From the NCBI RefSeq assembly GCF_013315695.1, contig NZ_CP054355.1: a stretch of 64,000 nucleotides of DNA. The stretch is one strand, 5' to 3'. Numbering within the stretch: position 1 is the stretch's first letter; every line of letters starts with the position of its first letter. Source of the DNA: Escherichia coli. GTDB taxonomy: Bacteria; Pseudomonadota; Gammaproteobacteria; Enterobacterales; Enterobacteriaceae. The translations under genes were made by a program, and so were the position numbers. Shown here one piece after another: positions 3,733-61,360 of the stretch. The notes beneath the pieces are model-generated. The model did no database searches and was not told the origin of the DNA. It worked only from the letters and a program-made list of their open reading frames with translations.

Positions 3733-4608
3733 ATGAGAAAGTTCATCCTTATTTCTATGATAACGTTAGCTAGTGTTAGTCTGGGAGCCTGCAGACAGAA
3801 TGTCACCATAAAGCAGGATGCGCCAGGGCAGAAAGCTTTCCTGACTGACGGGCAGATTTACGATTTGCACAGTGGCAAAATTATTTCTAGCAGCGAGCTT
3901 TTGGCGGATCTTGCTACCGCTCAACATCTTATTATTGGTGAAAAACACGATAATGCCGAGCATCATCAGATTGAGCTTTGGCTTATTCAAAATTTGCTCA
4001 TCCAGCGACCACAGGGGAGTGTGTTGCTTGAGATGTTGACGTCAGAGCAACAGCCCCGAGTTAACCAAGTTAAATGTTGGCTGAAAGATAATCCTGTGGT
4101 TCGAGATAGCCGTGTTCAGGAACTACTTAACTGGCAAAAAGGGTGGTCCTGGGAGATGTATGGCGACATCGTCATGCAGCTATTACGTGGGCCTTACCCG
4201 CTGCTCAATGCCAACATTGGCCGGGAGCAGATATTGGCACTGTACAAAAAAAACGAATTTCCTAAAGGAAAAAAATCCACTGCACCTGTGGTACAAGAAG
4301 CTCTGCGTGAAACCATCATATCTATGCATGAAGGCAACCTTGAAAGCCAGCAACTGACGTCAATGCTCTCTATTCAGCAGCAGCGGGATCGCTACATGGC
4401 CCGCCAGCTTCTGAGTGCCCCGGTACCGTCGTTGTTGATTGCAGGTGGTTATCACGCGTCAAAAAGCATGGGCGTACCGTTACACATGGAAGATCTTGCC
4501 ACCGGCACCCATCCAGTGGTGTTGATGCTTGCAGAAAAAGGAATGAACATCACAGTAGATCATGCTGACTACGTGTGGTTTGTAGCGCCAGATACAACAA
4601 AAAGGTAA
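3733..4608 (+). CDS. cjrA: ChaN-like haem/iron-binding lipoprotein (CjrA-like)
   Basis: Signal peptide with lipobox-like SLGAC; size and position 5' of a TonB homologue and a TonB-dependent receptor as in the cjrABC-senB cluster. Confidence 0.55.
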   Translation: MRKFILISMITLASVSLGACRQNVTIKQDAPGQKAFLTDGQIYDLHSGKIISSSELLADLATAQHLIIGEKHDNAEHHQIELWLIQNLLIQRPQGSVLLEMLTSEQQPRVNQVKCWLKDNPVVRDSRVQELLNWQKGWSWEMYGDIVMQLLRGPYPLLNANIGREQILALYKKNEFPKGKKSTAPVVQEALRETIISMHEGNLESQQLTSMLSIQQQRDRYMARQLLSAPVPSLLIAGGYHASKSMGVPLHMEDLATGTHPVVLMLAEKGMNITVDHADYVWFVAPDTTKR

Positions 4609-29171: not shown

Positions 29172-29437
29172 TTACCGGCAACCTTCCTGCTCATTTCATC
29201 TCGCCATGCTGCAGCAGAGGATTCGACCATGTCATGGGGAAGTACATCGCCGTGCTCGAGTTGCTGACGTCCTGCCTCAACCTGGTCACGGAACCAGGTA
29301 TTATGCTGCCGTTCAACGGTCTGACGCATAAAATCCCGGATTAACTGAGAGCCATTACGGTCCATGCTTTTTGCAGCGGCCATAAAAGCATCCTTCAGTT
29401 CAGCGTCGATTCTTAAACTCATATTAACCTGTGCCAT
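29168..29437 (-). CDS. ribbon-helix-helix antitoxin (RelB/DinJ/ParD-like)
   Basis: N-terminal MSLRIDAELKDAF... RHH signature; translationally coupled to the toxin remnant. Confidence 0.55.
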   Translation of the reverse strand: MAQVNMSLRIDAELKDAFMAAAKSMDRNGSQLIRDFMRQTVERQHNTWFRDQVEAGRQQLEHGDVLPHDMVESSAAAWRDEMSRKVAGK

Positions 29438-29459
29438 TTATCACCTCGTCATTACTACG

Positions 29460-29476
29460 TATATACACAGTATATA
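29460..29476. promoter_or_regulatory. palindromic operator candidate upstream of the antitoxin
   Basis: Perfect palindrome tatatacACAgtatata 23 bp upstream of the antitoxin start. Confidence 0.4.
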
Positions 29477-29639
29477 ACGATTCAGACATCGTCACCAGGA
29501 TATGCCGCGTCAGCGGCATGGAAGGCGGCACGCTGTGGTTACATGTGATACCGGAGTAAAACCGCCGAAGCCCGGCGTCAGCCGATACTGATTGATAGAT
29601 TTCACCTTACCCATCCCCAGCCCTGCCAGACCATACCCG

Positions 29640-29880
29640 CTTTCAGCCATGAGAGAGCTTCTGTGCGCGGTCGGAGTGGTCCCGACGAGGGTTTACCCGA
29701 AGTCGGGGCGTATCTCCGCGTTAGCGGGCCGTGAGGGCCGCTTACGAGCGTGTACTGAGAACTTCCAGCGAGAAGACTGACAGCGATGATGATGTAGTTA
29801 CAACATTCATAATTAAAAGCGACTCTGTTCCGGCCCTTCGGGCCGGGGCGGGGCCGCTTTTCAGTTATGAGGGAGGGGCT
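29640..29880. other. structured non-coding element X, candidate single-strand initiation (G-site-type) priming signal downstream of oriR
   Basis: Several hairpins (ccggcccttcgggccgg); shares gtcccgac...ggccgtSagggccgcttacgagcKtgta with element Y at 60560-60730. Confidence 0.35.
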
Positions 29881-29999
29881 TTGTTGTTTCGGTTCTGCGC
29901 TGGACCGGGGTTTTCCTGGTGGTTGTATTTGAGTGTTGTAACTAAAATGGCTCCGGTCGGGGCCCGCCGCTTGCGGTGGGAGGTGCATATCTGTCTGTC

Positions 30000-30350
30000 C
30001 ACAGGACAGGCAATGAACAGGTTTTCTTTTTAAATGAATGTAATTAAGTAGTTTAAAGGAGATATAAACAGGTGTTTAAAAGATACATTGCACCCTGTAA
30101 CGCTGGCGGCTGGCGCTTTATGAGGTGAACGGTTGTAACCTTATCGGGAAGTCCCTTGCAGTTTAATGTGGATAAGCACAATTACCCGTCTGTGAGGCGT
30201 ATTTTGTATTAAAAACAGGGGGAACCGGATGCACCTGAAGGTGGATGGTGAGGTTATTTTTTGTATGTGGTGCTGATTTTTTGTGCACTGGCGGGCTTCA
30301 GGCGTGCGGAAGCCTCCGGCGCGTGCCGGATTATTCTGAGGAGGTCACTT
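30000..30350. other. IncFII origin region (oriR) downstream of repA1
   Basis: Position directly 3' of repA1; DnaA box tgtggataa at 30167-30175. Confidence 0.5.
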
Positions 30351-31208
30351 TCAGGGGGAAGCTGTAGCCAGCCGGCTGTAATTGCGGTTACGTGACAGAA
30401 TCATGCGCTCCTTCACACGACGCTCCACTTCGCGTTTTACCGTCTCACCATTAGCAGTAAAGCGCCCTTCCGAGATTTCACGCGTCAGCTGCCGTTTCAC
30501 CAGGGTGACGATATCCTGACGTTCCCTGTTCGCATCACGACGCGCACGGGCACGTTTTATTCCACGGGACTTAAGCTCTGTCTGGTAACTGCGGAAACGC
30601 TCACGCACAAAACGCCAGGCTTTCGCTATTAGTTCATCCATACCCAGGGTATCCAGCCCCTGTTTTTTGCGCTGTCTGTTTTCCCATTCAACACGACTGC
30701 GGCGCGCAGCTGCCACTGCATCCTCAGACACATCAAGGGCAGCAAACAGAGCCGGTGTGAACGTGATATCGGTCGGAATGTAGCACCCGATAAGCGGGTC
30801 ATATTCCGTCTGGTAGGTAATCAACCCCAGCTCTGACAGGAACGTCAGGGCACGGGTGGCACGAGTGATGGAGAGTTTTCCTGCACCGGACTCTGTCGCC
30901 AGTCCGCACTCAATGGCCAGCGTGGTGATGGAGCACTGGACGCGGTTGGCCAGCGGGTCATAGTGGAAACACAGCCCCTGCAGGAGCGCATCAATAGCCC
31001 GTCGACGCAGCACCGGTGGCATGCGTCGACGCAGACCACGCGAACGGGCATGCGCCACATGAATGGCGAAATCAAAACGGGAGGTGAAGCCCACCGCCTT
31101 TTCCATCAGTTTTTCGCAGAACTTCAGCGTTCCGGCACCTTTACGGGGTGTAAACACCGGATTCGGGTTCTTTACCTGGCGGTAATACGTTTGGTGAAGA
31201 TCAGTCAC
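30351..31208 (-). CDS. repA1: IncFII replication initiator RepA1
   Basis: 285 aa from a GTG start, [19 protein letters not shown]...RLATASP, as remembered for R100/R1 RepA1. Confidence 0.85.
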
Positions 31209-31295
31209 ACCATCCTGCACTTATGTTGCACAGAAGGAGTGAGCACAGAAAGAAGTCTTGAACTTTTCCGGGCATATAACTATACTCCCCGCATA

Positions 31296-31386
31296 GAGCA
31301 ACAGCTTCTATGCAGTTTCTTGTTAGCCCCGGTAATCTTTCCTACTCGCCAAAGTTGAAGAAGATTATCGGGGTTTTCGCTTTTCT
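31296..31386 (+). ncRNA. copA: CopA-like antisense RNA of the IncFII replicon (approximate)
   Basis: Plus-strand stem-loop ccccggtaatctt...aagattatcgggg followed by ttttcgctttt, between repA2 and repA1. Confidence 0.45.
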
Positions 31387-31519: not shown

Positions 31520-31768
31520 TTAGCTAAAAGCACTCTTCTGCTTTATCAGTTCGGCAATCATCTCAGCCTGGGTAACGCCCTCAGCTTCACACATCACCTG
31601 CAATTGCGCTTTTAACGCAGCAGGAATGAACACTCTGAGTTCTTTATGTGTAGCTCGTTTTCTTGCCAGGGATGCCTGCTGACGTTCTGCAAGCGTCAGA
31701 GGATTACCTTTTCTGTATGCTCGCTTTGTACCTGATGAGGAAGTCACTGCATTTTCTGTCTGCGACAT
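31520..31768 (-). CDS. repA2: IncFII copy-number repressor RepA2/CopB
   Basis: 82-aa basic protein immediately upstream of the copA/repA1 region. Confidence 0.75.
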
Positions 31769-39200: not shown

Positions 39201-41559
39201 TCGCACTGTCACTGACGGAATGCCCGGGCGTTTCCACCCAGCCGTTCTCCAGCTTCAGTGCCGTGAACGGTGAATCAGCCACAGGCAGGGTGGCCGGTTC
39301 AGCCCGCCCCGGCACAACAACCGTCATCGCATCTTCACTGACGGATGCCACCTGCAGGCGGTCACCGCCGGAGACGCGGAGTCCGGGAATTTTCCCTGTC
39401 ACCCTCAGTCGCTCGCCGTCTGCCACCGGCATTTTTTCCGGCCGGAACAGCGACCAGCTGCTGTCCAGGGAGGAAATACGCACCACCTGCGTTTCGCCCT
39501 GCGCATCCCGCAGGGTCAGGCTGTGACTCTGCGCCGTCACCCGGTCGATAACATAGCGGTCATGACTGCGTGTCTCCGGGTTCCACTGCTCCATCACCAT
39601 CCCCGGTCGGTACATATCCCGCAGATAACGGCTCCGGCTGTCCAGCCAGACCGGTGACAGGGCGGTCATGGTCACCTCCGGGTGTCCGAGCACGCCCTGT
39701 GTTTTCAGCTCACTGCGAATGGCCTGTGTCAGTATGGCCTGTTCCCGTACCCCGCTGACCTGTGCCACGCTCTCTTCTCCGGCTTTCACGCTGGCCGCAA
39801 AATCTCCGGCCAGCCGGTCATAGCGGACATTCCGGTCCGGTTCACTGATGATGGTTGCCGGTCGCTGTTCTCCGCCCTGCCAGCGATACGTGTTCACCCC
39901 GGTATCCTTCATGGCCATCAGCGCACTGCCTGTACCGGTTCGCTGCCCGCTGTCGGTTATCAGGACCTGTACGTTATGACGTGCGGCACCGTCCAGCAGG
40001 GTTAACGTCTCTTTCAGGGAGAGTTTTTCGCCCTGGTCGACGATAACAGTACTGCCCGGCGTGAAGACCATGCCCTCCTGCAGCTGACGACGTCCGGTTA
40101 TCAGCTCACCGGACAGCCGTTCATCCTGCTTCAGGTTCATCTGCGAGCGACGGTCAGCAGCGATAATCTGCACCTCCCGCCCCTGCTCCCGGGCCATCAT
40201 GACCAGTTCAGCCACCCGCTCACGCTGCCCGGCTGCACCGCCCTGCCCGGACACAATGGCCAGCGACGGACGGTCCTGTGCCAGAACACTGACCGCATCG
40301 CTGTAACCAGCCGTCCGGGGGACACTTTTCTCCGGATGTACGGTCACCCGGTTCTGTTTCATGATGTCACGACTGAGTGCCCGGACGGACAGCTCATCGA
40401 GCACATGAATTCCTGATGTGAACAGCCCCTTCTCACGGTCGAGGGGGATAAGCTGCTCACGGCTGATGGCCTCATCGATACCGGCGCGTGCCCGTTCAAT
40501 CACACCATTTTCCGGCGGCAGTATGCCGACCGTCCTGGCCAGCACGTCCGTATACGTGAACTGCACTTTTCGTTCACTTAATCCGGCAATCGCCTGTGTC
40601 ACCGCCTGCTGCACATCCGGCCCGTCCTGTGAAGCAGGCCCGGGCGCCTGCGTGCGGATCTCCGCACGCTGATCCGCCGCGTCACGATATGCCCGGATGT
40701 CGAACCCGGTTTCCTTCAGCGTCTGCATCCATTCAGCCATTCTGATTTCCGGATCGACGTGCTGTTTGGATTTACGCGTATCCAGTGCCGCCACATCCCG
40801 GGATTTCAGCGAGGCGTCTTCCCCGACGGCCTCCCGGATAGCCTGTGAGCGTCCGGAAAAGGCCTCCACCGGTACGCCCGGCATCTCCCACATACCGTGC
40901 TTACCCACCACTTCGGTTTCATAGCCCAGCGCCTCAACCTGCTCTTTCAGTTTTTCCCGGTAGAGCCTGCCAAAGGCAATCTGATTAGCGTACACATTCT
41001 CAATGAACCCCGTTTTCCCCACTTTGTCACTGCTCAGTGTCTTCCACTCACCGTTATGCTGCGTGACATTAGCCACCACCGCATGCGTGTGTAACTGTGG
41101 TTCCTGATCGCGACTGGTGTCGTGGTTAAACAGTGCCATCACCAGATTACCGGTCAGCACCGTTTCTGACTGTCCGTCCGTCATCACCCGTGTGGAGGCC
41201 AGCGCCTCCACCTGACGAACAGCAAAGTCCACGGCCTGGTTATGTGCATCAATCAGGCGCTTATCGCCACCTAACATGGCCATCATGGAGACACTTTTGG
41301 GGGCGGAGAAGGTCAGGTCGTAGCCGGGACGATGCTTATTACTGCCATCCTGCATGCGGCTTAGATCCGCTCCGTCCGGCAGCCTTCCCTCCAGAAGACG
41401 GGTAAAAACATCCTTATCGACACTGCCCTGCAGTCCCAGCTGTTCAGCCCCCCTGCCGGCCCAGCGTTCTCCCATGCTGCCCAGTACATAGTAATTATCC
41501 TTGTCGGTATAATAGTTACCGGCACTTCCGGCCGATCTGACCTGCGCGATACTCATCAT
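36289..41559 (-). CDS. traI: relaxase/helicase TraI
   Basis: 1756 aa, N-terminal relaxase and helicase Walker motifs. Confidence 0.9.
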   Translation of the reverse strand: MMSIAQVRSAGSAGNYYTDKDNYYVLGSMGERWAGRGAEQLGLQGSVDKDVFTRLLEGRLPDGADLSRMQDGSNKHRPGYDLTFSAPKSVSMMAMLGGDKRLIDAHNQAVDFAVRQVEALASTRVMTDGQSETVLTGNLVMALFNHDTSRDQEPQLHTHAVVANVTQHNGEWKTLSSDKVGKTGFIENVYANQIAFGRLYREKLKEQVEALGYETEVVGKHGMWEMPGVPVEAFSGRSQAIREAVGEDASLKSRDVAALDTRKSKQHVDPEIRMAEWMQTLKETGFDIRAYRDAADQRAEIRTQAPGPASQDGPDVQQAVTQAIAGLSERKVQFTYTDVLARTVGILPPENGVIERARAGIDEAISREQLIPLDREKGLFTSGIHVLDELSVRALSRDIMKQNRVTVHPEKSVPRTAGYSDAVSVLAQDRPSLAIVSGQGGAAGQRERVAELVMMAREQGREVQIIAADRRSQMNLKQDERLSGELITGRRQLQEGMVFTPGSTVIVDQGEKLSLKETLTLLDGAARHNVQVLITDSGQRTGTGSALMAMKDTGVNTYRWQGGEQRPATIISEPDRNVRYDRLAGDFAASVKAGEESVAQVSGVREQAILTQAIRSELKTQGVLGHPEVTMTALSPVWLDSRSRYLRDMYRPGMVMEQWNPETRSHDRYVIDRVTAQSHSLTLRDAQGETQVVRISSLDSSWSLFRPEKMPVADGERLRVTGKIPGLRVSGGDRLQVASVSEDAMTVVVPGRAEPATLPVADSPFTALKLENGWVETPGHSVSDSATVFASVTQMAMDNATLNGLARSGRDVRLYSSLDETRTAEKLARHPSFTVVSEQIKARAGETSLETAISLQKTGLHTPAQQAIHLALPVLESKNLAFSMVDLLTEAKSFAAEGTGFTELGGEINAQIKRGDLLYVDVAKGYGTGLLVSRASYEAEKSILRHILEGKEAVTPLMERVPGELMETLTSGQRAATRMILETSDRFTVVQGYAGVGKTTQFRAVMSAVNMLPASERPRVVGLGPTHRAVGEMRSAGVDAQTLASFLHDTQLQQRSGETPDFSNTLFLLDESSMVGNTDMARAYALIAAGGGRAVASGDTDQLQAIAPGQPFRLQQTRSAADVVIMKEIVRQTPELREAVYSLINRDVERALSGLESVKPSQVPRQEGAWAPEHSVTEFSHSQEAKLAEAQQKAMLKGETFPDVPMTLYEAIVRDYTGRTPEAREQTLIVTHLNEDRRVLNSMIHDAREKAGELGKEQVMVPVLNTANIRDGELRRLSTWENNPDALALVDSVYHRIAGISKDDGLITLEDAEGNTRLISPREAVAEGVTLYTPDKIRVGTGDRMRFTKSDRERGYVANSVWTVTAVSGDSVTLSDGQQTRVIRPGQERAEQHIDLAYAITAHGAQGASETFAIALEGTEGNRKLMAGFESAYVALSRMKQHVQVYTDNRQGWTDAINNAVQKGTAHDVLEPKPDREVMNAQRLFSTARELRDVAAGRAVLRQAGLAGGDSPARFIAPGRKYPQPYVALPAFDRNGKSAGIWLNPLTTDDGNGLRGFSGEGRVKGSGDAQFVALQGSRNGESLLADNMQDGVRIARDNPDSGVVVRIAGEGRPWNPGAITGGRVWGDIPDNSVQPGAGNGEPVTAEVLAQRQAEEAIRRETERRADEIVRKMAENKPDLPDGKTELAVRDIAGQERDRSAISERETALPESVLRESQREREAVREVARENLLQERLQQMERDMVRDLQKEKTLGGD

Positions 41560-43784
41560 CAGAAATCATCTCCCGGCTCAACATCCTCCCCACGCTCCCG
41601 GTGCACATTAATGTTCACCTCTTCACGACGCTGCATCTGCTGCTGGATGTCCGGATGATTTTCCTGTTGCCATGCCTCATAAGCGGCCATATCCACCACT
41701 TCACCGGATTCACTGATCCCGGGTGGCAGTTGCTGTTCCATCTCTTCTTCCGGTTTCATTTTCAGCTCCTGCTCGATCCCCCCTGCCGGAACACTCACAC
41801 CTGCATCTGACTTCTTATCATTGATGACAGAAGACACTGGCTGTTGTGGCTGTTGTGGCTGTTGTGGCTGTTGTGGCTGTTGTGGCTGTTGTGGCTGTTG
41901 TGGCTGTTGTGGCTGTTGTGGCTGTTGTGGCTGTTCAGCCTGAGTCACATCTTCTCCGGAGGCAACCTCCGGTTCAAAGAGGCTGGCCATCTGACGACCT
42001 TCTGCTTCCCTTGCGGCAAGTACGGCACTCAGACGGTTCTCCATTTCCGGGTTGATGTCACGCGGAATAAACTCCGGAGCGACCTTCGGTCGTGCCTGAT
42101 ATTTCAGAGAGAGTTTGACTGCCGGATACGGTCCGGGCAGAGTGACATAGCAGGTCAGATCCGGCAGAGACTGAATGTCGGAATAACTGACCAGCGTCTG
42201 ACGCTCCATATCCTTACCGGTCGATACCCCGTCACGTACCGGGTCAGCACCGTAGGAATACTGCTCGCTGGCTTTCAGGTGCTCTTTCTCACCAATCTCA
42301 CCGGCAGCGAACTCTGCAATCTTATGGCTCGGGGAACGGAAAAAAGCACGGGTGTTCATGACGTCAAACAGCGTGGCCGCCGCTTTCTCACCGTAGATAT
42401 CTTCCAGCTGGGCATAGGACTGGATACCAAACACATAACAGCCACCGAACTTACGGGCTTCCGGCAGGATCTCCACCAGGTCCGGCAGTTTGTGTAACGT
42501 GGGTAACTCGTCACAGAAAAACCACACACGACGGTTACGGTTTTCTCCCATTGCCAGCAGACCACGAATGGCAATGGACAGCCACATGGAGATCACCGGC
42601 TTCAGGGAGGCATGGGTGTCGGCGTTCGACGAAATAAACAGCCAGCCGTTTTTCTGATCTTCCCGGACACCACGCATCCAGTCACGGATGGTAAAAGACT
42701 CACCGTTATGCTCAATCCCCTGCAGGTAACGGATGGCTTTCACGTAGTTGGTCAGCACAGCACGGATGGAAATCGCCGTTTTCTCAATTTTCTCTTCCAC
42801 CAGGTTGGCTGCCGGTGAATTACGCAGGAAGGTACGCAGTTTTTCAATTTTGATGGAAAGCAGTGTGTCCACCAGTTTGCTGTAGCTGCGGTTGGGGTCA
42901 TTACGCATCAGGTACGCCGCTTCCGCAAAAATGGTACGTCCTGAACCCTGCCAGAACGGGTCCTCTTTTGTACCCATAGGGATCAGAGTATTTGCGGTAT
43001 TATCAAAATCCGGCTGTGTCAGGCACTCCTTCCACAAATCCCATGCGGCACAGCGGGCATCCAGCGGATTCAGGATTTTATCGATGGAGGGATCATAGTA
43101 ACTTTTAACAAATTCCCCTGAACGGTCATAAATCACCACCATATCACCGCGCTGACGGGCATAGTTGGCCAGACGACGGATAACCTCCGACTTACCGGCC
43201 CCGACCGTGCCGTGCAGACAGAAGTTCTGGATTTCGGAATCCCGGATAATCGGCAGGTCGCCAATCCGGATATCGGAGTCCTTGCCGTCTTTTTTCAGCA
43301 TCCGGGCCACTTCTTTCGGGTTATCCGTCAGCTGACGCCCGCCGGTCACCTCATTTTCACTCTGCTGTTTCCCCTGATGCCCCAGAATCCAGGAGACAAC
43401 AAAGAAGGTGATCAGGCAAATAACCAGGGCCACGACAGACGCCAGAACGAATGCAGACCATAGCTGCTCTCCGCACCAGATCATATATTTATCATGCAGT
43501 ACCTGGGCAGCGTTCATCCGGAAGGTTTTGCCGTAATACTGGATCTCATAGACCGGCTGGGATTTTATTAAATCCCGCATGCCTTCCAGTGACGTACACC
43601 ACCAGTAAATACAGCCGTTGATAAACGTCTGCCAGCTTATTTTTACCCATAAGACCAGACCAATGAGGATCCAGAAAAAAATAAACAGGCAGTAAAGCAT
43701 GATATTGGCGATCTGGCTGAACATGCGGATACGCATGGACGCAATCTGACCGCCCTGGGTCATATCCTTTGCGTTAAAACTCAT
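41559..43784 (-). CDS. traD: type IV coupling protein TraD
   Basis: 741 aa, N-terminal TMs, Walker [10 protein letters not shown]-terminal (QQP)10 repeat. Confidence 0.9.
41841..41930. repeat. perfect 9-bp tandem repeat x10 (ctgttgtgg) encoding the (QQP)n tract of TraD
   Basis: Counted directly in sequence. Confidence 0.9.
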
Positions 43785-43834
43785 GATGAAACTCCGGGAA
43801 AATCTGGAACAGGGCAGAAAAGGATGATGTGGGG

Positions 43835-44572
43835 TTAATTCACAGAAACAGACCAGGTGTACCCTGTATGCCGGTGGTGATGCCCGCCTGCAGTCCTGCC
43901 GGAAGAGACCTTCTCTGTAACAATGTCAGTCAGGCGCAATACTTCAGACCAGTCACTCCCATGCGGAAACTGGATCTGAATAAAAAGGCGTACCCGTTCA
44001 CGGTGATCCAGAACTGTGTCCGGTTCATAAAAACGGCCACTGTCAGGAGAAACACAGGACGTTTTATTGATGAGATCATACTTATCGGCAGGAGACTGCG
44101 ATGAAATCGCCCAGGTGATATTCTCCGCCTGGTGGCCATCAATACGACTGCTCCCCGGCGTCCATGCAATTTCCTGCGCACTCGCCACGATGATCTCCCT
44201 GGAAACTTCAGCCAGCTTTCTGGGTGTACAGAATACCGGTGCCAGCACACACAGGGACAACAAATTACAGCTGACCGCCTCCGGTTTAAGCAAATTGCTC
44301 CCGGATTTTTCAGGAAAAGATATTTTTGTCAGTATTTCAGTTAATTCCTTATGCCTGAGAGAATTAATAAAGTACATGATAAGCATCATGAGAAACAATA
44401 TAACAATAAGCCCTCCGATAACCACTAAAAGGTCAGTATCAATATTATTGCTGTACAGATAGTCTTTAGTGGTCACTGTATTATCCTGTATCACCGGGGG
44501 GTATTCAGTTACAGGCTTCTCAGTAAATTGATTATTCTCACCAACATATTCAGCGATATTGTCTGATGTCAT
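43835..44572 (-). CDS. hypothetical single-pass membrane protein inserted between traT and traD
   Basis: ATG at 44572 preceded by GGAGAAAG; one TM helix ([22 protein letters not shown]); no recognisable domain. Confidence 0.5.
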
Positions 44573-44644
44573 AATGACTTTCTCCGGAAGATCCCGGCTT
44601 CGCCGGCAACACTTCACGGTCGCACAAAGAATTTGCACAACCGC

Positions 44645-44745
44645 TCAGTGTTTTCATATTTATTTCGGAAACGCCGGGAGGTGACAAAATTTATTTTGTT
44701 ACATCCCGGGGTTGGACAACGAGCAACGCGAGGCGTCAGCAAGGA
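44645..44745. repeat. ~80-bp repeated element, copy 2 (between traT and the extra gene)
   Basis: Conserved flanks shared with 31935-32015, different internal hairpin. Confidence 0.55.
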
Positions 44746-44774
44746 GGCCGGTCAGATCAGCCTCCTGACGAGGT

Positions 44775-45506
44775 TCAGAGAATATTTGCGATTGATTTGG
44801 CCAGTTGGTCTTCGAGAACAGGCTTCGCCTCTTCAAATTTCAGGTTAACCTTGTTCGCATTTGAAACCACACGGGTCTGGTATTTATGCTGGTTACCTGT
44901 TTCAGTACTGGTCTGAATTTTCGCACCTGATGTGCCCTGACGCAGGGCGGCAACATTATCCGTTGTCACCGTTGCCTTAGTACGCTCTGCAATCTGTACA
45001 TCCGTGATCATGGTATAGTTCACATCTTCCACCATCGCATCTGCAGCCATACCCACCAGACCAGCAGCAAGGCCTACACCGAGTGTGGCACCGGCAGAAT
45101 TTGAGTTATAGCCGGTAATACCGGCACCTAACGCTGCACCAACAGCTGCGCCTTCATAACCACGGTTCAGCCATCCCTGAGACTCCCGCAGATCCATCTT
45201 ATCAGCCTTCAGCACATTCGCCTGAATCCAGTAGTAGGCTTTATCCGGAGAAGTCACCACCTGATATCCTTTTGCTTTCACAGCATCAGCAATTTTGCCC
45301 TGCAGCCCACTCATGTCTTTATCAGACGTGTTTTTGATCTGCAGAAATACCGTGCGTTCGCTGGCGGGTTCAAGCCAGATGGTCTCACTCATCTGAGTCT
45401 TCACCTCAAGGTTACGCTTCTTGATTGCTGTGCTCATCGCACCACACCCTGAAAGGGCCAGAGTGGAACTGACCAGTGCAACCATCATCAATTTTTTTGT
45501 TTTCAT
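44775..45506 (-). CDS. traT: surface exclusion lipoprotein TraT
   Basis: 243 aa, lipobox LSGC, matches F TraT. Confidence 0.9.
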
Positions 45507-45519
45507 CCAAAATATCCTT

Positions 45520-46029
45520 TTAACTAACAGACTCTTTTTTGAATAGTCCTATTACTGAGGCTATAGCTGAGAGATTATAACGATTTATATCTATGGTATA
45601 CACCAAGAAAAATAATATGAATGTAATCATTAGTGCAAAAACATATAAGATAGAATGCATAAACGAAACCATAGAAAAAACAATCAAAAACAACAAAATA
45701 TATGTCTTACTCTTAGAATACATAAAATTTATTATTTTTGAATCCTTTCTGAAACTATCAGGAATCGCAAGGTATAACATCATTCCATTTGTAATAGCCA
45801 CAAAAAGCAGGAACCCCATCATTCCACTAGCACATATATCAAAGCCAACATCCCTGACATCACTTTTAACCGATACTAAACGCAGAAAAGTTGGCCATAA
45901 TAAAACCCATAAAAACACATAAGTTCCCGGCTTTATGACTTGTAATAATGATGGGATATTAACACCCTCTACAGAGAGTACCTCCTTTAGTTTCTGCATC
46001 TCCATTTTTATATCATAGTGAGTGATCAT
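45520..46029 (-). CDS. traS: entry exclusion protein TraS
   Basis: AT-rich hydrophobic 169-aa ORF between traG and traT. Confidence 0.65.
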
Positions 46030-55827: not shown

Positions 55828-56103
55828 GTGGCTTCTGTTTCTATCAGCTGTCCCTCCTGTTCAGCTACTGACGGGGTGGTGCGTAACGGCAAAAGCACCG
55901 CCGGACATCAGCGCTATCTCTGCTCTCACTGCCGTAAAACATGGCAACTGCAGTTCACTTACACCGCTTCTCAACCCGGTACGCACCAGAAAATCATTGA
56001 TATGGCCATGAATGGCGTTGGATGCCGGGCAACAGCCCGCATTATGGGCGTTGGCCTCAACACGATTTTACGTCACTTAAAAAACTCAGGCCGCAGTCGG
56101 TAA
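55828..56103 (+). CDS. insA: IS1 InsA
   Basis: 91 aa, [23 protein letters not shown]... Confidence 0.9.
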
Positions 56104-56525
56104 CCTCGCGCATACAGCCGGGCAGTGACGTCATCGTCTGCGCGGAAATGGACGAACAGTGGGGCTATGTCGGGGCTAAATCGCGCCAGCGCTGGCTGTT
56201 TTACGCGTATGACAGGCTCCGGAAGACGGTTGTTGCGCACGTATTCGGTGAACGCACTATGGCGACGCTGGGGCGTCTTATGAGCCTGCTGTCACCCTTT
56301 GACGTGGTGATATGGATGACGGATGGCTGGCCGCTGTATGAATCCCGCCTGAAGGGAAAGCTGCACGTAATCAGCAAGCGATATACGCAGCGAATTGAGC
56401 GGCATAACCTGAATCTGAGGCAGCACCTGGCACGGCTGGGACGGAAGTCGCTGTCGTTCTCAAAATCGGTGGAGCTGCATGACAAAGTCATCGGGCATTA
56501 TCTGAACATAAAACACTATCAATAA
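56022..56525 (+). CDS. insB: IS1 InsB (expressed as InsAB' by frameshift)
   Basis: 167-aa ORF in the -1 frame relative to insA. Confidence 0.85.
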
Positions 56526-56540
56526 GTTGGAGTCATTACC

Positions 56541-57248
56541 AAAGTCCGGGTCATTACGACGTTTAATCAATTCATCTGCAACGAGGAAACTGGTATCACT
56601 GGATGCCATGCGCAATGCACTCATTGCAGCTTTCGTAACTGAAGACACACCAATGCCAGAATTACCATGAATGGCACTTACAGAGTCAAATTGACCAACG
56701 ATAACACCAACATCAAGCGTAGTGCCGCCAATATCAACTACCAGCGATTTTTCGAACTGACCAACTTTATCCACGACCAGACGAGAAAACACAGCTGGCA
56801 ATGATTCAGGCATCACATCAACGTGTTCAATGGTGAAAACATCGCCTTTATTAAGACGAATCGGCCTCATTAAATTCTCAATTTTACGCTGAATGTTGAG
56901 TTCATTTTTTTGACACTCTTTCGTATAGAACTCACTGATAGGCAAAGTCACAGTCAATGATACAGGCTGAGGCGCTAATCCACTATTCAGTAAAGCGTGA
57001 TGCACAGCTAACAGGTTAACATCCGTATATTGATACTCAATATGAGTCGTAAGAATAGATTGGTTGCTAACTTCATCATACGTGTATTTTTTACCATCCA
57101 GTTCATAGTTAAATGTCTGGCGAATTCCTAACCCGTCAACCTTCCATCCATGACGAAATGAGTTTTGCGACAACGACTTACAGATTTTCCCATTATCATT
57201 CCATGCCAACTTGATTGTTGTTGAACCATCATCGCAGTATACGTTCAT
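56541..57248 (-). pseudogene. parM: actin-like segregation ATPase ParM/StbA, 3'-truncated by IS1
   Basis: N-terminal ..DDGSTTIKL.. actin-fold phosphate motif; frame reads into the IS1 right end; no parR follows. Confidence 0.65.
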
Positions 57249-57476
57249 CTATAGCCCCTTAAATACTCAATCTGAGTAAATCATTGTTTCTGGTTGCAAG
57301 GTAATACTCAATTTGAGCACCATCATAGTTATGAAATCACAAAACACAAGTATTATTTATTACATCACATGGCACACTTCACATTTCATACTTCATAAAT
57401 ATGAACACATATTGACACCTCAGGTTACCGTGTCAAAATATCATCATACTTCACACATCACATTTATGAGGTTGCA
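57249..57476. promoter_or_regulatory. parC-like centromere/promoter region shared by divergent par genes
   Basis: Direct repeats (atactcaatYtgag x2; acttcaca-type repeats) between the divergent parM and parA starts. Confidence 0.5.
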
Positions 57477-58121
57477 ATGATTACTGTAGTTGGTGGGAAC
57501 AAAGGTGGTTCAGGGAAAACTACCATTGCATCAAACCTGGCTATTGCTCTCGCAAATAAAGGAAGGGAAGTCTGCCTGTTAAACGGAGATCTACAACGAA
57601 CAGCCGCAAAACATCATGCGGAACGAGAAGCTGCAGGACTGTTACCAGCAATAACCCTTGTTGAGAAATTTGATAACCTGACACAAACACTACAGGCTCT
57701 GAATGAAAAGTTCGATGATGTAATAGTGGATGTCGCAGGAAGAAACTCAAAGGAATTCATAACGAGTGGAGTTGTCGCACATCAAATAATTGCGCCACTA
57801 CAGTGTTCTCAACCAGATCTGGATACTCTTACAGAACTAGAACAACAGATAGACGCAATGCGTAACCTTAACCCGGAACTTAAGGTTTATTGTTTACAAA
57901 GTATGGCAACAACCAATCCGGTTTTGAGGGGAAATGAGAGAAAAGAATTCCTTGAATATCTTGAAGAATTCCCAACAATTCAAGTCCTTGATTCAGTTAT
58001 TTGTTTCAGAAAAGTCTATCGCGATTGCATGAGCAACGGCACCGGTGTAGTAGAAACGAACAATACAGCAGCCAAAGCAGAAATTGAACATTTAATGAAT
58101 GAGGTATTTGGCCCATGGTGA
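57477..58121 (+). CDS. parA: ParA-family partition ATPase (small type Ib, pB171 par2-like)
   Basis: Deviant Walker A GGNKGGSGKTT; 214 aa. Confidence 0.75.
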   Translation: MITVVGGNKGGSGKTTIASNLAIALANKGREVCLLNGDLQRTAAKHHAEREAAGLLPAITLVEKFDNLTQTLQALNEKFDDVIVDVAGRNSKEFITSGVVAHQIIAPLQCSQPDLDTLTELEQQIDAMRNLNPELKVYCLQSMATTNPVLRGNERKEFLEYLEEFPTIQVLDSVICFRKVYRDCMSNGTGVVETNNTAAKAEIEHLMNEVFGPW

Positions 58122-58390
58122 AGAAACCCAGCCAGCAAGCATTAAACAGAGCTGCAGTTACGGTAGAACAAGCAGAGGCTCTGGCTCAGCGCCTTGCGGA
58201 TAAACCATACGGCGCGCCGGAAAAACCCGAACCAGAAAAACAATGTCGGACGACAATCTCTCTTGGTGAAAGCATGCTTGTCACAATAGAAGATCTGGCA
58301 TTGAGGAATAAACGCAATGGTAAAGATCCAAAAAATGTAAGTGCCATCGTCAGAGTAGCCCTTGAGCAATACTTAAAAACACTAACGTAA
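58115..58390 (+). CDS. parB: small centromere-binding partner (ParB/ParG-like)
   Basis: 91-aa ORF overlapping the parA stop (ATGGTGA). Confidence 0.55.
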   Translation: MVKKPSQQALNRAAVTVEQAEALAQRLADKPYGAPEKPEPEKQCRTTISLGESMLVTIEDLALRNKRNGKDPKNVSAIVRVALEQYLKTLT

Positions 58391-58527
58391 TAATCAATAA
58401 GTTATTACTTATGAAATCACACTTGTGAATTCATACTGTTTAAGCACCCTTGCATACAAGAGATCACATATTGCAGTGGTCTCTTTTTTTACAGAATAAA
58501 TCACAATTCATAATTATGATTTATGAA
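58391..58527. promoter_or_regulatory. second centromere-like repeat region (parC2-like)
   Basis: ttatgaaatcaca and aatcacaattcataattatgatttatgaattatg repeats; the former also occurs in 57249-57476. Confidence 0.4.
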
Positions 58528-59337
58528 TTATGCGTGTCTGTTTTTCAGCATTGTGACCGCATCGGACTCAGGCATCGAAAACTGCACCCGGTGCCGTGCA
58601 GCCACATCCAGCGCAAACACCTTCGTGTAGACCTCCGTTGAGCTGATGGACTTATGCCCCATCAGGCTCTGCAGGACCTTCAGTGGTATACCGGCATACA
58701 GCATGTGCATCGCATAGGAATGGCGGAACGTATGTGGCGTGACCGGGACAGAGAACGTCACACCGTCAGTAGCAGCGGCGGCAACCGCCTCCCCAATCCA
58801 GGTCCTGACCGTTCTGTCCGTCACTTCCCAGATCCGCGCTTTCTCTGTCCTGCCTGTTCGTTTATTACGCCGTTCCAGAGGAATTTTCAGTGTTGCCACC
58901 ATCGTCTGCAGCTGACTGACGTACCAGGAGTCGGAGAGCGGAACCAGCCGGTGAGTCTGCTGTCCGGCAGGCGTTCTTCCTGCCGTCCTGGCGGCTTTTT
59001 CGGTCCGCTGCTTCAGAGTGGCCAGCTGCACAAACGGATACGGAGGCGCGAGCGAAAAATCCCCCCGCGTCAGCGCCAGTGCTTCATTAATGCGCGCACC
59101 GGTGTTCCACAGTGTGGCCAGCAGCATCTTGCGGCGCAGATCCGGGACGTAATGGAGCAGGGCACTCACTTCCGGAGCCAGCAGATATTTCGGCAGTTCA
59201 TCATGAACCATCGACATCTGGCGAAGTGCCAGAGCTGCCGGATAATCAATGACAACAGGAAGTTGTGGAGACTGTCCGGCAGAATAAACTGCCGGTACCC
59301 TGGCTGCAGACTGGCTGTGTATAACGGAGCCTGACAT
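58528..59337 (-). CDS. resD: tyrosine site-specific recombinase ResD (multimer resolution)
   Basis: 269 aa with C-terminal R..HxxR..Y catalytic pattern; adjacent to ccdB as in F. Confidence 0.75.
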   Translation of the reverse strand: MSGSVIHSQSAARVPAVYSAGQSPQLPVVIDYPAALALRQMSMVHDELPKYLLAPEVSALLHYVPDLRRKMLLATLWNTGARINEALALTRGDFSLAPPYPFVQLATLKQRTEKAARTAGRTPAGQQTHRLVPLSDSWYVSQLQTMVATLKIPLERRNKRTGRTEKARIWEVTDRTVRTWIGEAVAAAATDGVTFSVPVTPHTFRHSYAMHMLYAGIPLKVLQSLMGHKSISSTEVYTKVFALDVAARHRVQFSMPESDAVTMLKNRHA

Positions 59338-59863
<526 letters not shown>

Positions 59864-60559
59864 AGTACACCTCTTTTTGACATACTTCGGGTATGCATAT
59901 AAGTATATATTATTATGATGCAAAAATCAGCGCGCAAATACACATACTGTTATCTTACTTTTAGTAAGCCTTATTTATTTTACCTTGCGTTATGTTAACC
60001 AATAAAAATCAAAATCTGACTTATAAAAACAAACCGTAATTATCGCATTCCCGTTTCCGTCAGATCCGACTTTCATTAATATCACAACTTTCCGGAAGTG
60101 TACCACGCTGAGAAAATCATCATATCACTGTTTTCCGCCCCTGCGCGGCGCATCACAGGTCAGGGAGATGGCACAACATATAGTGTAATTAACAGCTAAA
60201 TTCAGCACTACATGTTGTGCTGACGGGAGATGGCGCTGTGCGGCGGGAGAGGAAGATCCGTGACTACCTTTTTTCGGATCTTATTAGTGTAGAAGAACGA
60301 TTGTTGCGGTGAGGGGATTATTGCTTAGGAAGCAAAATTCAAAACTGACTAAGCCAGAAATAGCAACAACAAGATAAGGAAATTTTCCCCCTCAGCCCCT
60401 GCATGCCGTGAGGGGGAGCAACTACCCAACTACAGTTTTCATTTTATGATACGTCTTCACTAGGTAATACCTGTGAACTGACAGAGTCTTTACGGAATGT
60501 ATGGCGGACCTAAATTTGATCCCTGAAAACTGTCAGCGCTGCGAGGACGAAGAAAGTAT

Positions 60560-60730
60560 TACGGCTAAAGCCGTAATACCTCCCCATCCAGCTTCAAGCT
60601 ATGTAGAAACTTATGTGGGTAGAGCAGTCCCGACAGGGCAGTACCGCATTGACAGGCCGTCAGGGCCGCTTACGAGCTTGTATGACAAGGGGGGCCTAGC
60701 GAATTATTGTACGGTAAGCCTTTTTTGAAC
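60560..60730. other. structured non-coding element Y (diverged homologue of element X)
   Basis: Shares ccccatcc...cttYtgtg...gtcccgac...ggccgtcagggccgcttacgagcttgta with 29640-29770. Confidence 0.35.
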
Positions 60731-61054
60731 AGCCTTACCTATTGCTATAGAGGGGAACTCCTACGTTATACGCCGCTTTCAGGGGATTCGACCTTAATGA
60801 GACAACTCAAATATGATCGACAACTTAAACGCGATAGTTGCTGATAAAATCAATCCATTACGCGTTTCAATTGATTAAATAATGCACTTAATGTACAAAA
60901 ATTCCCGATCTCAAAACTGAACCCTAAAGATACCAGGCATCTCCCCCAGGAAGCGCCCTCATGCGTTTTCCTGTTCCGCCCCTGCCACCTACCTTCTGTT
61001 ACATACTTGTTGTATTATTGTTTTTGTTTTCAATCCCCAAGGAGACGTCGCTAT

Positions 61055-61222: not shown

Positions 61223-61332
61223 AAAATTTCCTTGCACATCCATTTTTTTGCGAATATTATTATTCCTGCTGAATATGATTCAATATCGCACGCTACTCAT
61301 CCATCCCAGGATAATGAGTTCATAGGTTGAAG

Positions 61333-61360
61333 TCTCAACACCCCCACTACGGGGGTGTTT
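61333..61360 (+). terminator. Rho-independent terminator
   Basis: acacccccactacgggggtg hairpin followed by T8. Confidence 0.6.

Follow-up and report, generated by a model that had tools for sequence, protein, structure and literature searches.

Two stretches of DNA in a 64,000-nucleotide window of Escherichia coli contig NZ_CP054355.1 (the window being the whole stretch that was analysed) share blocks of sequence, and the earlier note had read both as structured non-coding elements near replication modules. One of them, element X, lies beside an IncFII origin, and the other, element Y, lies upstream of ccdA. The locus raises the questions of what these elements are, on which strand and in which direction they would act, and whether the two copies are equivalent. 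The earlier note favoured primase-dependent single-strand initiation sites (G-site/ssi type) for lagging-strand priming, with a family of small RNAs as the alternative.

The placement of X downstream of the IncFII origin, as claimed earlier, agrees with the positions of repA1, CopA and the DnaA box. The features of X and of the neighbouring replicon are as follows.

29623-29757, + strand: core of element X, a G-site-like folded single-stranded DNA domain (family HMM, R100 alignment and fold)
29755-29757, + strand: CTG, candidate primer start (read from the sequence)
29795-29806, - strand: Ter-like site ATGTTGTAACTA (match to KTGTTGTAACTA)
29830-29846, + strand: perfect GC hairpin CCGGCCC-TTC-GGGCCGG (read from the sequence; identical in R100)
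29933-29944, + strand: Ter-like site GTGTTGTAACTA, inverted relative to the site at 29795-29806 (match to KTGTTGTAACTA)
29987-30175, - strand: oriR region, approximate extent (R100 alignment and length of the minimal oriR)
30022-30057: AT-rich stretch of oriR
30167-30175, - strand: DnaA box TTATCCACA (R100 alignment)
30351-31220, - strand: repA1
31293-31382: CopA RNA
31520-31768: repA2

The extent given for oriR (29987-30175) follows from a minimal oriR that we take to be 188 bp. From the repA stop through the element, the window is 97% identical to R100 (L079:7660-8480) and keeps an R100-like order of repA1, DnaA box, AT-rich region, two inverted Ter-like sites and X; within the core, a single loop base is the sole difference between X and R100. 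The alignment with the R100 site, to which the earlier note had pointed, thus came out in favour of its proposal for X. A family HMM built from 62 relatives, with Y left out, matches X at 29623-29753 (E=1.9e-35). The core begins 17 nt left of the start given in the earlier note (29640), whose range also took in the Ter-like site at 29795-29806 and the separate GC hairpin. The perfect hairpins that it had noticed are real, one being CCCGAC/GTCGGG within 29679-29709 and the other the GC hairpin at 29830-29846, which sits between the two Ter-like sites, outside the conserved core, and is followed downstream by GC-rich sequence and then TTTT. In the window, X lies about 605 nt from the repA end. 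A distance of 419 nt, which includes the two Ter-like sites, separates the CTG at 29755-29757 from the DnaA box; this CTG falls near the 3' end of an open reading frame on the - strand (29602-29988).

The leading-strand priming site of R1/R100 was mapped in about 1989-1994. In R1, a G site that needs primase only was reportedly found by Masai and Arai (1989) about 400 bp downstream of oriR. For NR1, Jiang et al. (1993) are said to have assigned the start of the leading strand to the vicinity of the 3' end of repA4, with ter repeats inside repA4. Position and earlier literature together lead us to equate X with the mapped G site. X is probably the G site of the R100/R1-type IncFII replicon, acting in cis as single-stranded DNA and with a putative dependence on primase. 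As judged from the sequence, it is an already known site, a near-identical copy of that of R100. The ter sites have been located in the repA4 region downstream of the IncFII ori, and transposon insertions in repA4 of a 99%-identical replicon were not tolerated (PMC4398462).

X belongs to a widespread family. X-like sequence occurs in at least 5000 plasmid records, and a pattern scan with one genome per species found 63 genome loci carrying the element in many genera of the Enterobacterales, including Escherichia, Klebsiella, Enterobacter, Citrobacter, Serratia, Pantoea, Erwinia, Hafnia, Edwardsiella, Yersinia, Pectobacterium and others. Among the fetched loci, the element lies 570-923 nt past the end of an IncFII-family repA in 31 of 69 copies, and in these repA is always on the strand opposite the element and points at it. 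In most of the other loci, a RepA_IncFII_LM (NF040977) gene takes the corresponding place. The other (left) flank shows no conservation, its genes being unrelated from one plasmid to the next; this combination of a fixed rep side and unrelated genes on the other flank indicates that the element belongs to the origin side of the replicon. One folded single-strand domain of about 130 nt thus accompanies both branches of the IncFII RepA superfamily across the Enterobacterales.

Three blocks are invariant in the family, GTCGGAGTGG, GGCGTATCTCCGCGTTAGCG and CCGCTTACG.GCGTGT, and X has all three; the search pattern for the 62 relatives fixed 20 bases in stem-loop I and the mini-hairpin, so that invariance there is partly by construction. 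Tanaka et al. (1994) reportedly described conserved blocks A-C common to plasmid G sites. Several copies of the element can occur in one genome: six contigs of one Pantoea stewartii strain carry it (L016-L021), and single contigs of Erwinia and Klebsiella michiganensis carry two copies (L044, L074). Such multiple copies presumably reflect several IncFII-family replicons per cell.

The relatives define a common structure for the element, which in X comprises the following parts.

29665-29751, + strand: closed three-branch domain (RNAalifold consensus)
29665-68 and 29748-51, + strand: closing helix, GCGC with GCGT (RNAalifold and pair counts)
29672-76 and 29714-18, + strand: second helix, CGGAG with CTCCG (RNAalifold and pair counts)
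29679-29709, + strand: stem-loop II, with outer stem GTCCCGAC/GTCGGGGC and inner hairpin GGG-TTTA-CCC (covariation)
29716-29727, + strand: alternative mini-hairpin CCGC-GTTA-GCGG, which overlaps stem-loop I
29719-29746, + strand: stem-loop I, CGT.AGCGG.CC-GTGA-GG.CCGCT.ACG (covariation)

RNAalifold, run blind, recovers the same three-branch architecture. The helices of the closed domain are 97-100% paired across the family by pair counts, and one pair of the closing helix is G·T, with A-T instead in 7 sequences. In stem-loop II, 5 of the 8 pairs of the outer stem (29679-86 with 29702-09) have changed on both sides in a compensatory manner, and a pair of the inner hairpin is C-G in 45 sequences and G-C in 8. 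Variants in which 13-14 nt are deleted rebuild a different hairpin at the place of stem-loop II. In stem-loop I, the pair 112-119 is C-G in 53 sequences and U-A in 7, and nearly all copies have a purine-purine mismatch (G·G, G·A or A·G), which is absent in one relative with a perfect GCGGCCC-GTCA-GGGCCGC stem. The central GCGG of stem-loop I (29716-29746) can pair either with the CCGC on its left, forming the mini-hairpin, or with the CCGC on its right, forming the long hairpin. In alignment A4, the proposed structure has 91.4% of cells paired, as compared with 32-47% when the partners are slid. The covariation across relatives that the earlier note had proposed as a check is also seen there, with 45 double-change cells against 16.5 in shuffles (0 of 500), a control that treats related sequences as unrelated and so overstates significance. 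Internal domain and proposed secondary structure of the R100 site were reportedly dispensable for its activity in the work of Tanaka and colleagues (1994), which sits awkwardly with the covariation of stem-loop II.

The fold is specific for one strand. For the + strand of X as single-stranded DNA, the folding energy is -29 kcal/mol (z = -3.49), and 0 of 200 shuffles were as good, whereas the - strand reaches -20.8 kcal/mol (z = -1.28), with 21 of 200 shuffles as good; the phage origins of G4 and alpha3, folded for comparison, gave z = -4.65 and z = -2.23, respectively. The + strand folds better in 62 of 62 family members (mean -27.3 versus -21.9 kcal/mol), a preference that amounts to consistency and not to 62 independent tests, as the relatives share ancestry. 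In addition, three pairs are mostly G·T and exist only on the + strand, becoming C·A on the - strand. Covariation in the family marks the helices under selection, and this signal shows which strand is used. Provided that the fork travels away from repA, a direction that we assume from published work and that is consistent with the Ter arrangement, the + strand of X would be the leading-strand template. The lagging-strand role assigned by the earlier note gives way, by this geometry and the earlier literature, to a leading-strand start.

The opposite assignment has been considered. If the - strand were the active one, priming would run rightward in the direction of oriR, and the site would be a start of the lagging-strand or backward kind, bounded by the Ter-like site at 29933-29944. 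Such a reading could draw on a CTG on the - strand (CAG on the +, column 84) in 42 of 62 relatives, which exceeds any + strand CTG, and on the 9-mer CGGAGATAC, which the - strand of X has in common with stem-loop II of G4, alpha3 and St-1. However, X and R100 have CTT at column 84, and the 9-mer would be expected by chance about 0.1-0.2 times. The fold of the - strand is not significant and is the weaker one in 62 of 62 relatives, three helix positions would become C·A mismatches, and the earlier literature assigns the site to the leading strand, so that activity of the - strand appears distinctly unlikely. A double-stranded site for RepA, a partition or handcuffing protein or a resolvase would account for the inverted repeats, for three invariant blocks of 10-20 nt and for the destabilisation of a related plasmid by insertions in the region. 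It would not give pairs that are G·T only, a strand asymmetry in 62 of 62 relatives or an unrelated hairpin in place of a deleted one, and we regard it as highly improbable.

The same observations bear on two readings in which the region is expressed. The element could encode a small or cis-acting RNA of + sense, or form a structured portion of one, and this RNA would run antisense to the direction of repA. A strand-specific fold, G·U-type pairs and compensatory changes would look identical in that case, and about 75 nt downstream, the + strand has a GC hairpin with TTTT behind it (29830-29870). By comparison, 29500-30000 and 60450-60900 gave no Rfam match at the gathering score or at E<=1, and no sigma-70-like site was found in 29200-30200 by a crude promoter scan that also misses the promoter which the neighbouring toxin-antitoxin operon must have. 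Moreover, the left flank, where a promoter would be needed, is not conserved and holds unrelated genes, and the position of the element is tied to the rep/ori side. The small-RNA alternative of the earlier note, for which no positive support emerged, is therefore very unlikely. Finally, the conservation might reflect a protein encoded by the repA4 open reading frame (29602-29988, - strand, 128 codons), which spans the region in the window and is annotated in some records as repA4 or hypothetical protein. A stop-free - strand frame is present, however, in only 29 of 57 distinct family cores; indels of 1, 2, 13 and 14 nt within the core of relatives break the frame, and substitutions in the stems are pairwise compensatory. 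The RepA4 protein was reportedly dispensable in the study of Jiang et al. (1993), and a coding explanation is barely tenable. We thus retain the reading of X as a G site that acts as a folded + strand.

Where priming by this G site would begin is suggested by the geometry at its 3' side. Past the closing helix of X and R100, the fifth base is T29756, which lies within TACTG; in G4, hairpin I ends at 3992 and the annotated primer start, T3997, is likewise the fifth base and also lies within TACTG. This common TACTG and spacing fit the 'limited homology near the start' that Tanaka et al. (1994) are said to have described. CTG directly follows the core in 11 of the 62 relatives; neither strand has a CTG conserved throughout the family, the best + strand column having 25 of 62. 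T29756 as the start base would for this reason hold for the R100 type only.

We propose the following course of events. RepA and DnaA would open oriR at about 29987-30175, and the helicase would unwind leftwards through both Ter-like sites. The displaced + strand, at about 29665-29751, would fold into the compact three-branch domain, which SSB would not melt. DnaG primase may then recognise the folded domain directly and begin an RNA primer; the likeliest template base for this is T29756 in the CTG, which sits five bases 3' of the domain. From this primer, synthesis would run back through the domain and continue leftwards to give the leading strand. Once a round is complete, the fork coming back would meet the Ter-like site 29795-29806 and halt there, about 40 bp short of the start. 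The scheme takes up the observed position, orientation and conservation of the element, its strand-specific fold, its covariation and the CTG geometry. Recognition by primase, the exact start base and the Ter polarity enter it by deduction or from earlier literature.

The Ter-like sites are of the Tus-binding type. The window contains two matches to KTGTTGTAACTA only, at 29795-29806 and 29933-29944, and TAGTTACAAC of the left site stands at a fixed distance from the core in most relatives. Both sites lie between oriR and X in opposite orientations, so that, whichever the Ter polarity, one of them faces the helicase coming from oriR. This site counts against the mechanism, and the sequence gives no explanation for it.

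Is Y a second site of the same kind? Its features are given below.

60585-60681, + strand: element Y, a homologue of the X family with diverged sequence and internal deletion (HMM E=3.1e-9)
60697-60798, no strand assigned: module of about 100 nt flanking Y (matches of about 80% identity in plasmids)

The blocks that the earlier note had seen in both elements are real. The 16-mer AGGGCCGCTTACGAGC is exact at 29734-29749 in X and 60662-60677 in Y, and a repeat finder pairs 39 nt at 29716-29754 and 60644-60682 with 85% identity (family D7). GTCCCGAC occurs at 29679-29686 and 60627-60634; in Y it stands 20 nt closer to the main block, since the 3' half of a hairpin that X possesses is missing there. 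An exact shared 16-mer is not rare in 64 kb, with about 0.5 expected by chance per strand by our own estimate, and 1 of 100 shuffles gave at least 3 matches at up to 3 mismatches. The homology of X and Y can nevertheless be taken as secure, since the profile matches both elements. The match of Y spans positions 11-130 of the HMM, which was built from 62 independent relatives with Y left out, and in the 64-kb window the HMM matches nothing besides X and Y.

Y has lost much of what defines the family. It retains about 5 of 10, 11 of 20 and 15 of 16 positions of the three invariant blocks, in the order given above. The stem-loop I region and the 3' block are kept. The left closing block is short of four bases, stem-loop II is without its 3' half, and the CGGAG/CTCCG helix, the GCGTTAGC mini-hairpin and the CTG are gone, with GTATGAC where X has GTACTGA. 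Folding of single-stranded DNA, a check that favours X, gives z of about 0 for Y on both strands, no better than shuffles. A tblastn search with ten Rep proteins found no Rep gene or remnant beside Y. The earlier note was right that Y lies upstream of ccdA, at a distance of about 700 nt, but Y falls outside the RepFIA homology, which ends at 60281 (F 45922). In F, Y corresponds to 40690-40786, a stretch of the backbone flanked by RepFIB and the pif genes, and the profile finds no other copy in F. The sampled copies of Y are all identical, including those in the three most diverged records, and have no power to measure selection. Full-length copies of the element joined to the right-hand flank of Y occur in pTEM-2262 and in a Pantoea genome, and because they share this flank, Y looks like the decayed descendant of a full-length copy.

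Most likely, Y is what remains of an IncFII-type replicon that was once present, and it would prime weakly or not at all. The G-site/ssi identity proposed for both elements hence suits X by its R100 identity, placement, fold and CTG, and does not suit Y, which has lost blocks, fold and rep gene. Residual priming activity of Y is possible but rather doubtful, and is entertained because the internal domain was reportedly dispensable in the work of Tanaka (1994). It is unlikely that Y serves as a reduced, origin-independent primase entry site or that stem-loop I acts as an SSB-driven switch, the two taken jointly. In the former case, X and Y could start complementary-strand synthesis in the recipient, alongside the Frpo signals. 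In the latter, the mutually exclusive CCGC/GCGG/CCGC pairings and the kept purine-purine mismatch would act as proposed for the G4 mini-hairpin, and structure, not a trinucleotide, would set the primase start, given that no CTG is conserved family-wide. In the window, the - strand carries the tra genes, and the strand that F transfers (its - strand) corresponds to the + strand here; going by this orientation, the structured strand of X and Y (+) would be the one transferred in conjugation. We return to the preferred reading of Y as a relic.

The surroundings of Y hold several further features. The module at 60697-60798 is widespread: a 321-nt query gave 1622 matching records, including ColE1-type plasmids, in one small member of which the origin, as deduced from RNAI, is about 0.9 kb upstream of the module. 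In pTEM-2262 and the Pantoea genome, it directly abuts the full-length G-site-like copies. The module has no single-strand fold signal, which speaks against a second ssi-like structure, and a comparison by eye with Xer/cer cores and the ColE1 bom site gave no convincing match. At 60692/60693, the window lacks 9 nt (GTCTGGATA) that three other plasmids carry right of Y. Of RepFIA, only a remnant is present (58528-60281 and 55828-58400), with oriV-1 homology, ccdA, ccdB and resD; repE, oriV-2 and sopABC are absent from the window, and in place of the missing RepFIA genes are a gene for a ParA-like ATPase, a small open reading frame, a truncated parM-like gene and IS1. F 41107-45921 (the pif region) is also absent. 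About 600 nt right of Y, a full-length Rfam match identifies the small RNA UptR at 61268-61359 (+ strand, 123.6 bits), a stretch that corresponds to F at about 40.1 kb. Elsewhere, inside the transfer-gene region, about 11 tandem copies of the 9-nt unit TGGCTGTTG occupy 41820-41960.

As a discovery, the finding is real but ordinary and matters little. Modestly useful are the comparative picture of the family given above and its bearing on annotation, which usually leaves the stretch blank or gives it a spurious 'repA4/hypothetical protein', and which a DNA-element model would fix. F-type plasmids moreover carry, far from any IncFII origin, an unannotated degraded copy that is not to be mistaken for F ssiA.

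Several known systems provide signals that can be compared with X. RSF1010 ssiA and ssiB are, like X, hairpin-based priming signals within or beside a plasmid origin. They are distinct in being hairpins of 40 nt that serve the plasmid's own RepB' primase and not host DnaG, and their sequence is unrelated to X. The Frpo signals of the F leading region (ssiD, ssiE) resemble X and Y as folded, primer-giving signals on the transferred strand, as far as the tra orientation indicates. By comparison, Frpo is read by RNA polymerase through a hairpin that mimics -35 and -10 elements, whereas X and Y have no promoter-like hexamers. Like X, F ssiA is a single-strand initiation signal attached to an F-type plasmid replicon. 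The F site near ori-2 is presumably of the PriA (phiX174) type. F ssiA lies upstream of repE/oriV-2 (PMC4398462). Its part of RepFIA is absent from the window, which has no repE. The earlier note had suggested an alignment with F ssiA; an identity of Y with that site was rejected, because Y maps elsewhere in F (40690-40786) and the profile matches nothing near repE/oriV-2.

The origins of the phages G4, alpha3 and St-1 are closer to X in design. They too have a strongly folded single strand (z of -3.5 for X, -4.7 for G4 and -2.2 for alpha3), and G4, like X, has a CTG five bases 3' of the last helix within an identical TACTG. GCGTTAGC is the mini-hairpin motif of alpha3 and St-1 (PMC13037366), a match to X that is within chance, and the alternative pairing in X recalls the alternative of hairpin I and mini-hairpin in G4 (PMC13037366). 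The 9-mer CGGAGATAC of stem-loop II of G4, alpha3 and St-1 (L001 3941-3949) occupies 29707-29715 on the - strand of X, within an invariant block; this match, too, is within chance, by the expectation stated above, which is our own estimate. The G4-type phage origins consist of three separate hairpins, whereas X forms one closed three-branch domain. Comparison of X and Y with the phage records by blastn gave chance matches only, Smith-Waterman alignment on both strands against the phage origins did no better than shuffles, and the family profile (nhmmer), run against G4, alpha3, St-1, whole F and parts of R100, found only X, Y and their orthologues. X thus appears to work like a phage G site without being a sequence relative of it.

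The G site of the IncFII plasmids R1, R100 and NR1 stands nearest. With Y, it has in common only the 3' block and the stem-loop I region (85% identity over 39 nt), and Y lacks its other blocks, its fold and a neighbouring IncFII-family origin. A 99%-identical replicon needs the repA4 region with its X-type site for maintenance (PMC4398462). X, by comparison with Y, is orthologous to the R1/R100/NR1 site, stands in the same order of repA1, oriR, inverted ter repeats and element, and differs from it in nothing of substance.
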